Shown one piece after another: positions 8,613-24,413 of a stretch of 64,000 nucleotides of DNA (its first letter is position 1; each line of letters starts with the position of its first letter). The stretch covers positions 14,128 to 78,127 of IMG/VR virus record IMGVR_UViG_3300021399_000006, one strand, 5' to 3'. The notes beneath the pieces are model-generated. The model was not told the origin of the DNA. It ran no database searches and saw only the letters and a program-made list of their open reading frames with translations. Made by a program: the position numbers and the translations under genes. Origin of the DNA: a virus.

Positions 8613-8930
8613 TATTATATCATAATATTTTAATAAAGTCAAGTGCGGTCTCGGCGGCAAGGCCATATGCCTCGGTCTGAACCTAAGGGCCCTATGATGC
8701 GAGAAGCAGGTGAGACTGCACATAGGTCCATCTCCGCCTGACGGATTCACATAGGTGAATTCAGTTATGTGGATAGGTTCACCTTTGTGGATTGTGCAAA
8801 ATGCACAAAAATTTCGGGAATTTTGGCGAAAAATTTGTGCAATTTTTTTTGAAAAAAATATTGACATTGAGAGAATTTTGTGGTATAATCGGCGCGAACC
8901 ATGGTTCGCGCCCCGATGGTTTTAGATATG

Positions 8931-8960
8931 GATATAAAAAAACAGGCGTTACCGCCTGTT
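8931..8960 (-). terminator. Rho-independent terminator (AACAGGCG-UUAC-CGCCUGUU + U6 on minus)
   Basis: Hairpin plus A6 on plus, which is U6 on minus. Confidence 0.5.
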
Positions 8961-9099
8961 TAAATCTATTAAAGAAAAATCAAAACCCATAATGAAAGCA
9001 AGAATTGCATCTGCTATAAGAATGAGAGGCCAAAGGGGTGTAGGTTCACGAAAGTAGAAGGTAGAGACCGCACATAAAACAAAGAACCATACAACGCAT

Positions 9100-9282
9100 T
9101 TAATCATAGAAAGAAACATCTTCAATTCTCCATGCAAAAGGTTGGCGATAATAATCAAGAGTAATTGCATCACAATAGCTCCCAAAAGGACACTCATCAC
9201 ATTTGTTTATATCTTTATAGGCTTTTTTACAACCTTTTTTAATGAGTTTCATTCCTTCAATAATTTCATTTTTCCAATTCAT
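9100..9282 (-). CDS. small Cys-rich protein (CDECPFGSYC)
   Basis: Track ORF of 60 aa. RBS AGGAGAAG. Confidence 0.5.
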   Translation of the reverse strand: MNWKNEIIEGMKLIKKGCKKAYKDINKCDECPFGSYCDAITLDYYRQPFAWRIEDVSFYD

Positions 9283-9283
9283 T

Positions 9284-9472
9284 TTATTCTTCTCCTATCT
9301 CAATACGATAACAAATATCACTAATAATATTATGAAGATTAAAATTAAAAGTATCTTCAATATCTTCTAAATCAAATTCATCTTTATAACAATGAATAAG
9401 ATTTTTAAAGGCTTCACCATATCTTTCCGCCAGTTCAGGAAAAAGAGTTTTTGAAATATCTGAATTAATCAT
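9284..9472 (-). CDS. hypothetical small acidic protein
   Basis: Track ORF of 62 aa. Confidence 0.45.
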   Translation of the reverse strand: MINSDISKTLFPELAERYGEAFKNLIHCYKDEFDLEDIEDTFNFNLHNIISDICYRIEIGEE

Positions 9473-9717
9473 CTGCTTTTCTCCCTTGCAATATCGCTAA
9501 ATTTGTACCACACGCCTTCATCATTTTCATCTCCCCAAGTATGAGTTCCTTCCCAATAGTCATAAAGTTCATCATAAGGAATAAACTTTTGTGCAAACAT
9601 GATAACACCAAAAGCCTGAGCACGACAATTCTTAACCATGTCAGCAGAAGAACATTCTTTTGCATCAGCAAGTCTTTTTTCAACAAATTCTTTAACATCA
9701 TCCATTGTGATAGTCAT
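9469..9717 (-). CDS. hypothetical protein
   Basis: Track ORF of 82 aa. RBS AAGGAAA. Confidence 0.55.
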   Translation of the reverse strand: MTITMDDVKEFVEKRLADAKECSSADMVKNCRAQAFGVIMFAQKFIPYDELYDYWEGTHTWGDENDEGVWYKFSDIAREKSR

Positions 9718-9897
9718 AGCTTATTTCCTTTCTGTTGCTTTCCTCTTGACAATTATTATTATATCAGATTATCGGGAAAATACAATATGTAATGTTGCAC
9801 AAAAATGTAGATGAAATTTTGGTAAGGTTGACTATTGACATATTTTGGGCGCTGTCTCAATGGACAGCGCCCCGGGCTTCCGCCTGGGACGACTGTT

Positions 9898-10116
9898 TTA
9901 ATATTCAAGAGCTGATAACCAATTATAGTTATTAATATAAATATCTTTCCAGAATACTCTTTTTACTTTATGTTCAGAACAATTTAACGTTTTAGCAACA
10001 TTCCAGAAAACAATGTCTCCATCTAACCACCAGTCAAAATATTCTTGTTTCATAATAAAAAGAAAAAGTAATGCTTTGATTTGTTTATCTCGTTCAATCT
10101 TTTTCTGTCGAGTCAT
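9898..10116 (-). CDS. hypothetical protein
   Basis: Track ORF of 72 aa. Confidence 0.45.
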   Translation of the reverse strand: MTRQKKIERDKQIKALLFLFIMKQEYFDWWLDGDIVFWNVAKTLNCSEHKVKRVFWKDIYINNYNWLSALEY

Positions 10117-10119
10117 AAG

Positions 10120-10380
10120 TTAATCCTCAAGCAATCTTTCTGCTACACGTCTCCTCACAAATTTTATTGTATTATCAATCTCTTTTTCATTATAATAAAA
10201 GAAATCGTCAGCCTCATCGAGTCCATCAAAACAATCGCAGATAGCACTGTTGCAATCTTCTGTAATAACTCCAAGAACTTCATCAACGATTTCATTAATG
10301 TCAATATTAACATTAATAGAACTAATTACAAATGCCATTTTATACCTCCTTAAAACTCCTTGAAAACTTCCTTCTGACAA
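10120..10380 (-). CDS. hypothetical acidic protein
   Basis: Track ORF of 86 aa. Confidence 0.5.
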   Translation of the reverse strand: MSEGSFQGVLRRYKMAFVISSINVNIDINEIVDEVLGVITEDCNSAICDCFDGLDEADDFFYYNEKEIDNTIKFVRRRVAERLLED

Positions 10381-21700: not shown

Positions 21701-21757
21701 CCTTTGATGATTATATATTATCATATTTGTTGACTTTTGTCAACCCCTTTTTTTATT

Positions 21758-21919
21758 TTATTTTTCAAGCCATTTGTAAAAGTTCTTTTTCCAGTTCTCA
21801 ATGATTTTTACAGTGTAAAAATCATCTTTACAAATTTCTTCAACCCTTGCATCGTCCATGTGATAACCGTTCTGAATCATTTCGTTGAAGATTGCTTTCT
21901 TGATTTCGTAGTTTGTCAT
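21758..21919 (-). CDS. small protein (53 aa)
   Basis: Manual ORF, own promoter. Confidence 0.35.
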   Translation of the reverse strand: MTNYEIKKAIFNEMIQNGYHMDDARVEEICKDDFYTVKIIENWKKNFYKWLEK

Positions 21920-22012
21920 TTTGTACCACCTTTCTTTGATCGGTTTGTTTCATTTCTTGATTATATTATATCAAAGGGGTTGAGGTTTGTCAACCCCTTT
22001 TTTAAAATTTTT

Positions 22013-22168
22013 TTAATCCCAAAAACCAGACCAAACAGAAAACCCTTGTTCATTTACTATTACGTGATCGAAATAGCCATTATCATATTTTTCCATATAA
22101 TCCAGGCAGTCGGCATAAGACCCCTCAAAAACAATTAATTCATCTTCGTTGCGTTCAACTCGATACAT
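22013..22168 (-). CDS. small acidic protein (51 aa)
   Basis: Manual ORF. Confidence 0.35.
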   Translation of the reverse strand: MYRVERNEDELIVFEGSYADCLDYMEKYDNGYFDHVIVNEQGFSVWSGFWD

Positions 22169-22266
22169 TTTAAATCTCCTTTTCATTTGATTGGGTTTTG
22201 TTTTCCTTTAACTGTATTTATTATATCAAAGGACTTGGCTTTTGTCAAGCCCTTTTTTAAAATTTT

Positions 22267-22446
22267 TTAGCACTCCCACGGTCCATCAGGGAAAAATGTT
22301 ACACAATTAAGGTCGTCATCCCATCCGCAAGAAAGAACATAGTTCTGCCACTGTCCAGACATAGCATCAATTTCTTTTTCCATTTTATCCATCATGTCTG
22401 CATCAATAGTAACGACTGCATCTAAAAACCATACATAACCTTTCAT
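22267..22446 (-). CDS. small acidic protein (59 aa)
   Basis: Manual ORF. Confidence 0.35.
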   Translation of the reverse strand: MKGYVWFLDAVVTIDADMMDKMEKEIDAMSGQWQNYVLSCGWDDDLNCVTFFPDGPWEC

Positions 22447-23022
22447 TTTATACCACCTTTCTTTTGTGCTTTTGTTTTCCTTTGATGATTATATTATATC
22501 AAAGGGCTTGGCTTTTGTCAAGCCCTTTTTTGATTTTTTTAAAATCTTTCTTTTAAAGCAAAACCCTTTTCATTACGAATAGCAATGTAGTCATAAGGAA
22601 ATTTTTTACAGGCTTTTTCAAAAACTTTTTCCGCTTCTTTCATAGTTGCTACTTTAAAACCGTAACGGAGAAAACCTACTGTGATGTGGAACATTTTGTA
22701 CCCCTTTCTTTGGATCGATTATTGTTTTCCTTTGATGATATAAGTATATCACACTATAGAAAAAAGTCAATAGATTTTTAAATAAAATATTGTACAAAAA
22801 AAGGATTAAAATAAAATAAATAATTATGCACTTTTCCCTCTTGACAACTGGCTGTCACATGTGATATAATGTTTCGGCCTGCAGCGGCCGCTTCCGCAGG
22901 CTTTGGAAAGAATGTTAAATTATTAACAATCGATCTTCTTTTGTACGATCGATTGTTAATAATACGCTTTGTTATAATATAATAAAAGCCTTATTAGTTT
23001 TATACTAATAAGGCTTTTATTT

Positions 23023-23265
23023 TTATTTAACGTCAACACCTTGACTTTTCAAATATGCAATTCTTGAAGGAACATATTCGTTATATCTTTTTTCAAGCTG
23101 TTCTTTTGAGTATCTCATAACATAGCTTCTATCAGCTTCTTTGTAGATACCAAGTTCAACCATTCTGTTAACCATAGCTTTCTTTGTCATTTTAAACCCC
23201 TTTCTCGATCGGTTCTTTGCTTCATTTGATAAATCAATTATAACGCTAAAAGACATATCTGTCAA
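23023..23265 (-). CDS. hypothetical basic protein
   Basis: Track ORF of 80 aa. Confidence 0.45.
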   Translation of the reverse strand: MTDMSFSVIIDLSNEAKNRSRKGFKMTKKAMVNRMVELGIYKEADRSYVMRYSKEQLEKRYNEYVPSRIAYLKSQGVDVK

Positions 23266-23614
23266 TACTTTTTTTAATTTTCAGACTATTTTTTTAATTT
23301 TCAGATAACTTTAAAATCTTCGTTTTTAAAGGGTTTACTTTGATCTTTTAACGTGTTAAAGTGTGTTATTTTTTTAACAAACAATAGCATTTTAGGAATG
23401 AAAAAATTTTTTAAAATTTTTTCATTTTTCCTCTTGACAAACTGGTTCTATGTGTGGTATAATTGTTCGGCCTGCAACGGCCGCTGGTGCTGACTAACAC
23501 AATAGAGTTTGTTTGTTAATTAACAAACAAACTCTATTACTTTAACGTATTAAAGAACATTGTTAAAACCTTAACAATCAATCTACTATGTTAGATTGAT
23601 AATAGTTTAACAAT

Positions 23615-23690
23615 GATTATTATTATTATTATTATTATTATTATTATTATTATTATTATTATTATTATTATTATTATTATTATTAATCAA
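23615..23690. repeat. (TTA)n microsatellite, about 24 units
   Basis: Perfect trinucleotide run read directly. Confidence 0.9.
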
Positions 23691-24413
23691 TTGACTTAGT
23701 TTGATTATTTATCTTATTTTGATTAGTTTGACCTAACTCAGCAAAGCCACTTTTACACATTAGCGTACTAAAGTGTTATTTTTTTAACAAGTAAAAGACT
23801 AAATCTTTAAATTTTAAAATAAGTGTTAAAAATTTAACAAGCCCGCTAATGAGCAAAAGTAAGAGTTTAGTGTGTTAAAAACTTAACAAAGGCAAGACTG
23901 TATCACTTTACCATGTTAAAGTGTTAACGTGTTACTAATGAGCAAAAGTAAGAGTTTAGTATGTTAAAAATTTAACGCTTATCAGGAAAGGTGTGAGTTT
24001 AGTGTGTTAAAAATTTAACGCTTATCAGGAAAGGTCTGACTTTTATTGATTACAGATTTATGGATTCAGAAATCTGGATACGTGTTATTGCATTAAAATT
24101 CGGCGCGCATTGGCCTGCGCGCGCCGAGCAAAACTATTAAATACAAAAAAAGACCGCCCTAAATAAAATCATACGATTTTTTAGGGCGGTCCATTCTACG
24201 CAGCGTTTATATTTAGTTTTTTGTCTCTACACAGCATTCCCAAAACTTTTCTCTCGGTATTAACGGGGGGGGTGGGTTTTTGGGAAAAAATTTTTTTGAT
24301 TTTTAAAATTGATTATGGTCTCGCCATTCCCCGTACCAAAAGTTTTTAAGTTTTCAAACAACGTACCAAAAGTTTTTAAAAATCTAAATAACGGTTCCTC
24401 GCACCAAAAATTT

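Follow-up and report, generated by a model that had tools for sequence, protein, structure and literature searches.

T4-type phages contain promoter-early stem-loops (PeSLs), repeated intergenic motifs in which a consensus early promoter for the host sigma factor is joined to a stem-loop. The PeSLs precede small ORFans of hyperplastic regions; their stem-loop, which overlaps the -35 box in some cases, terminates transcription, and indels between relatives are bounded by the motif (Arbiol et al. 2010, PMC2839356; Comeau et al. 2014, PMC4122927). Gene shuffling mediated by PeSLs has been tested experimentally in these phages (PMC2839356, PMC4122927), and excised mini-circles that arise by recombination of adjacent motifs are regarded as another feature of this class. 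Here, we describe a 15-kb array of small genes in a stretch of 64,000 nucleotides (nt) from the virus record IMGVR_UViG_3300021399_000006 (positions 14,128 to 78,127, hereafter the window). The array, at 8.6-24.2 kb of the window, is the leftward early arm of a phage genome of about 133 kb, and it contains 2 kinds of repeated regulatory module. Type A resembles the PeSL, whereas type B holds an antisense consensus promoter that faces a GC-rich hairpin, which we refer to as the PH element.

Four other systems were considered for comparison. The host-takeover module of the Bacillus phage SPO1 is reportedly located in the terminal redundancy and is said to group some two dozen small early genes into numerous short operons, with strong sigma-A promoters, strong ribosome binding sites (RBSs) and terminators; to our knowledge, neither shared repeated boundary modules nor antisense promoter-hairpin elements are known from it. 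Morons are reportedly isolated insertions in the late operons of temperate lambdoid phages that are expressed from the prophage. The OOP RNA of phage lambda is a single terminated RNA of 77 nt; its constitutive promoter of host type, like those of other phage antisense RNAs of this kind, is located just past the 3' terminus of an early gene and is directed into that gene. Finally, the SPbeta repeated element (SPBRE) is an operator that is bound by the master repressor MrpR (PMC10516654).

Organization of the array

Perfect matches to TTGACA-N17/18-TATAAT numbered 21 in the 64-kb window, all of which were located within 8861-23463, as compared with 0.07 expected from shuffled sequences. Twelve were on the minus strand, which is the gene strand, with spacers of 17 bp, and 9 were on the plus strand, 7 of which had 18-bp spacers. 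A broader scan yielded 112 promoter-like sites versus 65 expected, terminator-like sites numbered 34 versus 12.3 expected, and every one of the 16 perfect GC-rich hairpins in the whole 64 kb was located within 8587-24191. When the -35 box was relaxed, about 33 intergenic promoters were recognized on the minus strand, and 38 open reading frames (ORFs) of 32 to 231 amino acids on this strand were preceded by a Shine-Dalgarno (SD) sequence. As predicted from these signals, the region comprises about 33 minus-strand transcription units carrying 38 small ORFs, a tRNA-Lys and several ORF-free RNA slots, and we infer that these are early sigma-A transcription units of the phage.

The original prediction, made from the sequence alone, described about 16 cassettes with a consensus promoter on the minus strand and a closing terminator in each. 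The array, the promoters and the terminators were all recovered here, but the number of units was about 33. The 2 motifs that had been quoted along with the consensus promoter are not themselves promoters but represent, as read on the plus strand, the bases immediately following the sense -10 box, and the 9 perfect promoters that face the opposite way, each into a GC hairpin, had been overlooked. The shared flanks corresponded to 2 distinct composite regulatory modules, one of which includes an antisense promoter.

The type-A module, with the sequence aaaaaGGGCTTGacaaaagcCAAGCCCtttgaTATAAT, was present in 6 copies between 20.8 and 22.5 kb. Its hairpin closes the upstream gene and holds the -35 box of the next promoter, which is followed by a conserved leader and an RBS. 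On the plus strand, a T6 tract follows this hairpin, which is accordingly predicted to be a strong terminator in that direction.

The type-B module was present in about 15 copies and recurred every ~1 kb. In this module, the gene is followed by an intrinsic terminator with T6-8, then, after 4-6 nt, by a GC hairpin of 7-15 bp and, after another 6-9 nt, by a full consensus promoter in reverse complement, the PH promoter. Thereafter follow the inverted repeat TTGCACAAATTTCGGGAT..AAATTTGTGCAA (plus strand) and a weaker sense promoter, TTGCAT/TTGTGT-17-TATAAT, with aataattgtcaagagga and an RBS. The inverted repeat was found 4-10 nt upstream of the PH -35 box in 64 of the 66 type-B modules of the clade, and its arms were usually 12-25 nt apart, within a range of about 4 to 40 nt. 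The repeat may serve as an operator or as a terminator for the plus strand; when it was considered as an RNA hairpin of that strand, there were 23 G-U versus 11 A-C mismatches, many of the copies being orthologous.

Copies of the inverted repeat in the window were noted at 8789-8845, 14970-15021, 15966-16007, 18950-18993 and 20007-20044, and one copy had both arms altered together (TATACAAAT/ATTTGTATA). It was also noted that the type-B sense promoters at 9758-9785, 11768-11795, 17282-17310, 18913-18941 and 19973-20001 had a conserved TGTCAAGAGG at the expected start, the complement of which, CCTCTTGACA, is a -35-like box that lacks a matching -10 box. The same motif was also present in the distant 197-kb contig of L045.

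The PH element

We compared the consensus promoters on both strands of the window and of 12 related loci (loci of other phages are given L numbers). A fold of -15 kcal/mol or lower was predicted within 55 nt of 71 of the 99 antisense promoters, as compared with 13 of the 297 gene-strand promoters, and the median minimum free energy (MFE) after the promoter was -20.1 and -2.6 kcal/mol, respectively. The helix started 6-9 nt past the -10 box in 57 of the 71 PH elements. The 5' arms of the hairpins had a G+C content of 82% and were variable, with 66 distinct arms among the 71, and in front of the exonuclease gene the orthologous stems of different lineages varied by compensatory changes, such as cggcgaaaatgcgcgcattttcgcc in L006 versus cggcgtttttgcgcgcaaaaacgcc in L007.

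The promoters of the PH elements are a distinct promoter class. A G was present at positions +1 and +2 after the -10 box in 57% and 67% of them, respectively, versus 11% and 7% of the other promoters, and the ordinary promoters had a Y(+6) A(+7) start signal instead of this GG discriminator. Furthermore, TG was present in 92% of the PH promoters, and AAA followed the -35 box in 62%.

The PH element was located just behind the sense terminator, and in 8 further loci it always faced the gene strand at the ends of units. Since the adjacent reversed terminators contained a U tract in the antisense direction in only 6% of the cases, transcripts from the PH promoters should run on into the preceding unit. 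The hairpin centers were spaced by 1014 ± 273 bp, with a coefficient of variation of 0.27 versus 0.91 for random placement, and none of 10,000 random trials was as regular; in the other loci, the commonest hairpin spacing was 750-1000 bp.

A pattern scan of IMG/VR identified the PH element in at least 119 stretches, mostly from contigs of 50-200 kb and many from rumen samples, with 399 distinct copies among the stretches fetched. In 596 Gb of bacterial genomes, the matches were few, 97 stretches, mostly on contigs of gut and rumen Clostridia metagenome-assembled genomes that may be phage. No description of the element was found in the literature on recoded-phage early promoters or antisense-promoter/stem-loop elements, a limited search that leaves its novelty unproven, and the Rfam 15 covariance models gave no match to the hairpins. 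The PH element is the part of the array that is most likely to be new.

Other arrangements were also seen. At 3266-3360 in L045, at 11195-11300 in L003 and in L014, a GC hairpin is located between 2 convergent full-consensus promoters with the -10 boxes about 45 bp apart, so that 2 polymerases would be unable to occupy both promoters. A role for the PH promoters in transcription-driven DNA entry was considered and set aside; relatives of the group may package by headful.

Gene turnover in related phages

Twelve loci with the exonuclease gene were recovered. The relatives retain the modules, but the cargo is altered and reordered. In the closest relative, L001, the exonuclease was 84% identical, and 15 of the 38 window genes were matched while 23 were without a match. 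Family F9 was located before F7 in L002 and L003, and after F8 in the window and in L001. Likewise, the RNA at 21.7 kb of the window adjoins the RNA at 18.6 kb in L001.

Three indels between the window and L001 were resolved to breakpoints inside the modules. The gene at 16980-16807 is located between 2 promoter copies, 17041-16995 and 16797-16751, with the core TTGACAATCTCTCCAATGT(G/A)TGATAATATATAATCAACAAAAGGAAA the same save one base. The spacers of these copies are identical to each other and differ from that of the single L001 copy, which indicates a recent duplication or conversion. Conversely, an extra gene for 74 amino acids in L001 is located between 2 promoter copies, where the window has one copy. 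The three-gene unit at 13550-12879 is located between 2 type-B modules, which are represented in L001 by one chimeric module, corresponding to the upstream window copy up to the PH -35 box and to the downstream copy thereafter. The breakpoints were thus located in sense promoters in the first 2 cases and at the PH -35 box in the third.

The duplication of a 50-bp promoter segment previously reported around the gene at 16795-16980 was confirmed, and the single copy in L001, which lacks the gene, agrees with its interpretation as a recombination scar with breakpoints inside the duplicated module. The broader claim, that shared flanks would allow cassettes to turn over, is partly supported: it fits these 3 indels and is in line with the gene content and family order in the relatives, but does not fit the many swaps that lack repeats. 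A candidate natural deletion in a second assembly of the same phage (L134), which lacked 13741-12822 between flanks of 100% identity, was rejected since the junction consisted of a 100-bp run of N that represents a scaffold gap.

ORF-free RNA slots and cargo proteins

Some slots had been predicted to hold structured RNA in place of an ORF, and this was substantiated for R5 (18606-18430, minus strand), an RNA of ~175 nt with its own perfect promoter. R5 was 96.7% identical to its L001 homolog, versus ~76% for coding DNA, contained 10 covarying pairs, and was 95% paired as compared with 27-48% in slid controls. Homologs were identified in L001, L002, L004, L006 and L078, and the sequence comparison indicates that R5 is under stronger constraint than the proteins. 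Another 5 slots, at 21707-21545, 19965-19785, 15925-15835, 12700-12595 and 12545-12415, were conserved in relatives, at least in L001. A search of the ORF-free slots against Rfam 15 identified only the tRNA-Lys(UUU) at 15159-15232 at the gathering threshold, and nothing credible at E ≤ 5.

The start of R1 (21545-21707, minus strand) resembles by eye a tRNA-like minihelix, with a 5-bp acceptor-like stem GGUAG/CUACC around a canonical T arm, CUAAGG-UUCGAUU-CCUUAG, which was called by neither ARAGORN nor Rfam. R1 as a stable fold was rejected, with an MFE z-score of -0.06. In L001, this RNA is located elsewhere in the array, after the promoter that drives R4 in the window.

The GC content of the cargo ranged from 19% to 52%. 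The GC-rich genes at 11920-12321, 15319-15723 and 17488-17853 (minus strand) clustered as one family, here called F0, in agreement with the 3 copies first reported, and had a GC content of 51-52% in a genome of ~33%. All 3 avoid the codons TTA, CTA and TCA, and each belongs to a unit closed by a type-B module. Hundreds of metagenomic homologs of F0 were found, but no Pfam domain and no tblastn match in cultured phages. An AlphaFold model with a confidence (pLDDT) of 83 contained a C-terminal winged helix that matched small winged-helix domains with a TM score of 0.8 on the target and weak E-values; F0 is accordingly a family predicted to end in a winged-helix domain. ORFs of 160-185 amino acids overlapping F0 in antisense were rejected as genes: the codon-aligned frame was open in 22 of 26 homologs, and shuffling of synonymous codons gave exactly 22, so that the ORFs are open because of codon usage.

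Very acidic proteins and small membrane peptides were present as described earlier: of the 38 early proteins, 13 had an isoelectric point (pI) of 4.3 or lower, and 5 had a hydrophobic segment. The product of the gene at 19310-19107 had a net charge of -23. The labels DEDDh exonuclease and HAD nucleotidase should be regarded as tentative, with an E-value of 1.4e-4 to a PHROG exonuclease subunit for the former and of 7e-4 to the Pfam Hydrolase family, below the cut-off, for the latter; a PDB sequence search gave no match for either protein. The exonuclease has a homolog in the Enterococcus phage H1, in which a gene annotated as HAD-like is located 2 genes upstream of it.

Genome context and relatives

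One of the array proteins had an identical copy on a scaffold of 132,990 bp from a sheep-rumen metagenome. The phage is a large siphovirus of the sheep rumen, of ~133 kb, in which TAG is recoded in the late genes. With the standard code, the segment from 29 to 62 kb was nearly vacant, whereas reading TAG as sense opened a plus-strand block of large ORFs, including ORFs of 2981 (71 TAG codons) and 1558 amino acids. These late structural ORFs (28972-61546, plus strand) are open solely when TAG is sense, and the ORF of 2981 amino acids is tape-measure-like. The 38 early genes ended with TAA (32 genes) or TGA (6 genes), and none with TAG, which was also absent in frame. The tRNA-Lys(UUU) was the sole tRNA identified in the window, which thus had no recognizable suppressor tRNA.

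The terminase-like ORF at 31669-33432 shared 45% identity with the large terminase annotated in Enterococcus phage H1 (H1/EF1), with further matches to Geobacillus E3, Lactococcus 949 and SPbeta-type YonF. H1 contains a syntenic array of ~23 small genes and ~18 near-consensus promoters, one before almost every small gene, that ends with the HAD-annotated gene, one more gene and the exonuclease homolog (annotated as an exodeoxyribonuclease). As judged from the terminase and the syntenic array, the phage is distantly related to H1/EF1. At the nucleotide level, megablast of the 15 kb against INPHARED gave a match of 46 bp only. The sigma-A consensus promoters and strong SD sequences indicate a Firmicute host, which was probably one of the Clostridia.

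The genes flanking the array encode SPFH, DUF5758, a calcineurin-like phosphoesterase, an isochorismatase and a SprT-like protein, and no recombinase, integrase or repressor was identified among 20 window proteins screened against Pfam. Upstream of the array, a kilobase devoid of ORFs (23300-24200) contained at least 6 GTTAA-N5-6-TTAAC palindromes inside repeats of ~40 bp, and an (AAT)n run of ~22 units at 23620-23690. This palindrome region may be an origin or a protein-binding array; such palindromes also adjoin PH promoters in L001, L007 and L009. At the opposite end, a GC-rich ORF-free stretch (8650-8790, minus strand) beyond the last PH module and a near-consensus promoter (8642-8614, minus strand) that fires directly into a bidirectional terminator (8585-8605) had no homologs in the fetched loci. 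The features of the array are listed in Table 1.

Table 1. Predicted features of the early arm, in window coordinates
Feature	Position	Strand
GC hairpin, upstream edge of the array, no promoter attached	24101..24126	-
PH: 12/12 promoter 23434-23463 and imperfect GC hairpin	23434..23500	+
Promoter 23265-23237, 55-aa gene 23190-23023, bidirectional terminator 22981-23021	23023..23265	-
PH: 12/12 promoter 22841-22870 and imperfect GC hairpin	22841..22905	+
Promoter 22770-22743, 51-aa gene 22694-22539	22539..22770	-
Type-A 22530-22493, 59-aa acidic gene 22446-22267	22267..22530	-
Type-A 22257-22220, 51-aa acidic gene 22168-22013	22013..22257	-
Type-A 22000-21965, 53-aa gene 21919-21758	21758..22000	-
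Type-A 21752-21715, RNA slot R1 21707-21545	21545..21752	-
Type-A 21523-21486, 34-aa acidic gene 21438-21334	21334..21523	-
PH: weaker promoter TTGATT-17-TATAAT 21245-21273 and GC-rich hairpin	21245..21318	+
Promoter 21184-21156, 99-aa basic gene (F7)	20824..21184	-
Type-A 20814-20777, genes 20722-20567 (51 aa) and 20541-20404 (45 aa)	20404..20814	-
Promoter 20400-20372, 63-aa acidic gene	20151..20400	-
PH: promoter 20059-20088, 12-bp GC hairpin 20096-20132	20059..20132	+
Inverted repeat AAAATGCACAAA..TTTGTGCATTTT, between PH promoter and next sense promoter	20007..20044	.
Type-B promoter 20001-19973 (TTGCAT-17-TATAAT, then aataattgtcaag), R2 19965-19785, 60-aa gene 19775-19593	19593..20001	-
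Promoter 19596-19569, genes 19526-19338 and 19310-19107, terminator 19108-19071	19071..19596	-
PH: promoter 19001-19030, GC hairpin 19038-19062	19001..19062	+
Type-B promoter 18941-18913 (R3), promoter 18813-18785 (R4 18778-18655); both ORF-free	18655..18941	-
Promoter 18640-18612, R5 18606-18430, 60-aa gene 18395-18213, terminator 18227-18202	18202..18640	-
PH: 11/12 promoter 18121-18149, 10-bp GC hairpin 18158-18194	18121..18194	+
Promoter 18061-18033 (R6), promoter 17932-17904 with F0 17853-17488, terminator 17476-17453	17453..18061	-
PH: promoter 17369-17398, GC hairpin 17407-17441	17369..17441	+
Type-B promoter 17310-17282, 60-aa acidic gene 17243-17061	17061..17310	-
57-aa membrane-peptide gene 16980-16807 between promoter/leader copies 17041-16995 and 16797-16751	16751..17041	-
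HAD-like gene 16738-16289, 59-aa gene 16277-16098, terminator 16111-16088	16088..16738	-
PH: promoter 16016-16044, GC hairpin 16054-16076	16016..16076	+
Inverted repeat TTGCACAAATTT-N18-AAGTTTGTGCAG	15966..16007	.
Promoter 15955-15927, R7 15925-15835	within 15102..15955	-
Promoter 15805-15777, F0 15723-15319, tRNA-Lys(UUU) 15232-15159, terminator 15123-15102	within 15102..15955	-
PH: promoter 15025-15054, GC hairpin 15062-15086	15025..15086	+
Conserved core: promoter 14956-14928, exonuclease 14884-14189	within 13706..14956	-
Conserved core: promoter 14192-14164, F3 gene 14133-13744, terminator 13736-13706	within 13706..14956	-
PH: 11/12 promoter 13596-13624, 11-bp GC hairpin 13633-13669	13596..13669	+
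Three-gene acidic unit (77, 65 and 62 aa), promoter 13550-13523	12879..13550	-
PH: promoter 12784-12813, GC hairpin 12822-12845	12784..12845	+
Promoters 12735-12707 (R8) and 12578-12550 (R9)	within 11858..12735	-
Promoter 12396-12368 with F0 12321-11920; GC hairpin 11882-11858 then T7, without antisense -10	within 11858..12735	-
Type-B promoter 11795-11768, genes 11737-11387 and 11390-11097	within 10873..11795	-
Promoter 11092-11064, 32-aa peptide gene; hairpin-only module 10897-10873	within 10873..11795	-
Promoter 10810-10783, four genes (10752-9898); hairpin-only module 9872-9847	9847..10810	-
Type-B promoter 9785-9758, genes 9717-9469, 9472-9284, 9282-9100 and 9170-8949, terminator 8961-8940	8940..9785	-
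Last PH: inverted repeat 8789-8845, promoter 8861-8889, GC hairpin 8891-8912	8789..8912	+
aa, amino acids.

Discussion

The array shares with the PeSL regions a repeated intergenic motif with a host-sigma consensus promoter, represented by the 21 perfect promoters and the ~33 sense promoters with conserved leaders. The stem-loop overlaps the promoter in the six type-A modules, which match the PeSL description closely and are predicted terminators. As in the PeSL regions, the modules precede small ORFans, with 23 of the 38 genes unmatched in L001, and 3 indels are bounded by the motif. However, the array belongs to a Firmicute siphovirus with TAG recoding, the terminase of which is nearest to those of large Firmicute siphoviruses and not to T4-type myoviruses, and has no sequence similarity to the T4-type PeSLs. 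No counterpart of the type-B module, which recurs with a ~1-kb periodicity and combines an antisense promoter and its 5' GC hairpin with an inverted repeat, was seen in the PeSL description (PMC2839356). We regard the type-A modules and the shuffling as a close functional analog of the PeSLs in an unrelated lineage, not as a member of that class.

The other systems resemble the array in part. Phage SPO1 has a similar cluster of small early genes in short operons, but is an unrelated myovirus. The units had been called moron-like, and they do have the shape of morons, with a predicted promoter and terminator of their own, heterogeneous cargo, and insertion between genes that are adjacent in relatives (16980-16807 and 13550-12879 as compared with L001). 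However, they make up the whole early arm as tandem units with shared modules, in an architecture like that of the cultured phage H1, and the term fits the shape of the units but not their biology. Like the OOP promoter, the PH promoter is of host type and located beyond the 3' end of an early gene, into which it is directed, but there are ~12 copies per genome, mostly without a terminator and with a 5'-terminal GC hairpin. Like SPBRE, which recurs at the promoters of numerous early operons in a large siphovirus of Firmicutes that is distantly related by its terminase (YonF-type), the inverted repeat TTGCACAAATTTCGGGAT..AAATTTGTGCAA is a short conserved element, and it could be an SPBRE-like operator, although its arm spacing is unusual for a dimer operator. 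The three winged-helix F0 paralogs are candidate binders of this repeat.

We propose that the stretch is the early, host-takeover or accessory, arm of the phage, and that it would be transcribed by the host sigma-A RNA polymerase as ~33 very short minus-strand units. The type-A hairpin would terminate the upstream unit and carry the -35 box of the next consensus promoter. In the type-B module, which would consist of a terminator, a GC hairpin of variable sequence, a PH promoter aimed back at the unit, the inverted repeat and a weaker sense promoter, the PH promoter would start an antisense transcript, the first bases of which would fold into the GC hairpin. Because a stem-loop within a few nt of the 5' end shields RNA from 5'-dependent decay, this hairpin may act as a 5'-terminal stabilizer. 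The antisense transcript would run convergently into the preceding ~1-kb unit, and a tightly bound polymerase at the PH element, together with the antisense RNA, would insulate neighboring units and help to switch the early genes off. Since the modules are repeated sequences of 40-200 bp, homologous recombination between them may insert, delete and reorder units, as PeSLs do in T4-type phages, and we infer by this analogy that it drives the shuffling, with ordinary illegitimate events additionally exchanging single ORFs within units. This explanation as a whole is favored, if not strongly, by the data. The architecture and the role of the modules in recombination are its more secure part and are considered likely, whereas the PH mechanism, with antisense RNA, insulation and early shut-down, is put forward tentatively at somewhat less than even chances.

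Several observations weigh against this explanation. The start sites, the efficiency of the terminators and the antisense RNAs are predicted from the sequence. The cultured relative H1 has the array yet almost no PH elements, which are therefore dispensable for array function, and 3 modules in the window (11882, 10897 and 9872) retain the hairpin but not the antisense -10 box. In lineages such as L045 and L003, in which the hairpin is placed between convergent promoters, the second promoter is only 3-4 nt from the stem, which fits a role at the DNA level, as a roadblock, better than that of a 5' stabilizer. The ~1-kb regularity is not accounted for by the model. Moreover, only 3 indels were resolved to breakpoints inside modules, and many other swaps consist of single ORFs at stop/RBS junctions inside operons, without a repeated flank.

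These swaps, and the near-consensus promoters before almost every small gene of H1, would also be expected if the stretch were an ordinary early region with one promoter family, in which gene content changes by illegitimate recombination or deletion without involvement of the modules. We consider this unlikely, given the 3 indels with both ends in duplicated modules, the L001 module that joins the left and right window copies, the shared spacer of the promoter copies around 16980-16807, and the demonstration of the same process for PeSLs (PMC2839356). Far less probable is that the GC hairpins are structure-specific recombination sites, like the attC sites of integrons, at which a phage recombinase would move the cassettes. 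The pairing is indeed kept while the sequence varies, with 66 distinct arms among 71, and the hairpins mark the 3' ends of the units with a regular spacing; however, integron cassettes are promoterless, whereas the units here have promoters of their own, the resolved breakpoints were in promoter sequences and not in hairpins, no recombinase domain was found among the 20 screened proteins, and the fixed distance between hairpin and promoter would be unaccounted for. Site-specific exchange of the integron type is thus not supported.

With regard to the PH element, a less likely alternative is that it acts purely as an insulator at the level of DNA and polymerase: a polymerase held head-on just past the sense terminator, where the element is always located, would block read-through, the GC hairpin would release the stalled polymerase without a U tract, and the antisense RNA would be a by-product. 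Studies of sigma region 1.2 in Escherichia coli associate the combination of -35 box, TG, -10 box and GG discriminator, all of which are present in the PH element, with the longest-lived open complexes, and the distance of 6-9 nt between hairpin and promoter equals the hairpin-release distance of an intrinsic terminator. It is this geometry, the discriminator and the symmetric promoter-hairpin-promoter variants, which would insulate both ways, that suggest a roadblock. Polymerase retention at the PH element is, however, an assumption, open complexes of Bacillus subtilis-type polymerases are generally short-lived, and the 3 hairpin-only modules would lack the supposed block. It is also conceivable, but quite improbable, that the PH units encode short stable RNAs that do not regulate the neighboring unit but have a separate function, such as decoys for host RNases or for RNA-guided defense, similar to RNA anti-CRISPRs. 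A strong promoter is each time followed by a very stable hairpin, and the copies number in the hundreds in phage contigs, as compared with only 97 stretches in the 596 Gb of bacterial genomes. Yet, the stems differ between copies and orthologs, so that no single protein-specific sequence is preserved, and a terminator that would delimit a short RNA was present in only 6%. Our own reading of the PH element, that it is an undescribed class of phage regulatory element that partitions the early arm into domains of even size with convergent transcription, by way of a polymerase-trap insulator and/or stabilized antisense RNAs that time the shut-off, is slightly more tentative than the PH mechanism itself.

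The array suggests that the principle known from PeSLs, by which regulatory motifs double as recombination handles for small early genes, is not confined to T4-type phages of Gram-negative hosts, and that the same principle may operate, with other components, in the TAG-recoded phages of Firmicutes, which form a large uncultured group. It also provides a catalog of ~38 uncharacterized early proteins, including 13 very acidic proteins and a three-copy family predicted to contain a winged helix, and of several RNAs, which are natural candidates for host-takeover or anti-defense functions. If functional, the PH element would represent a simple design for insulating and timing many tiny units, and may be a usable part for synthetic circuits in Gram-positive bacteria.

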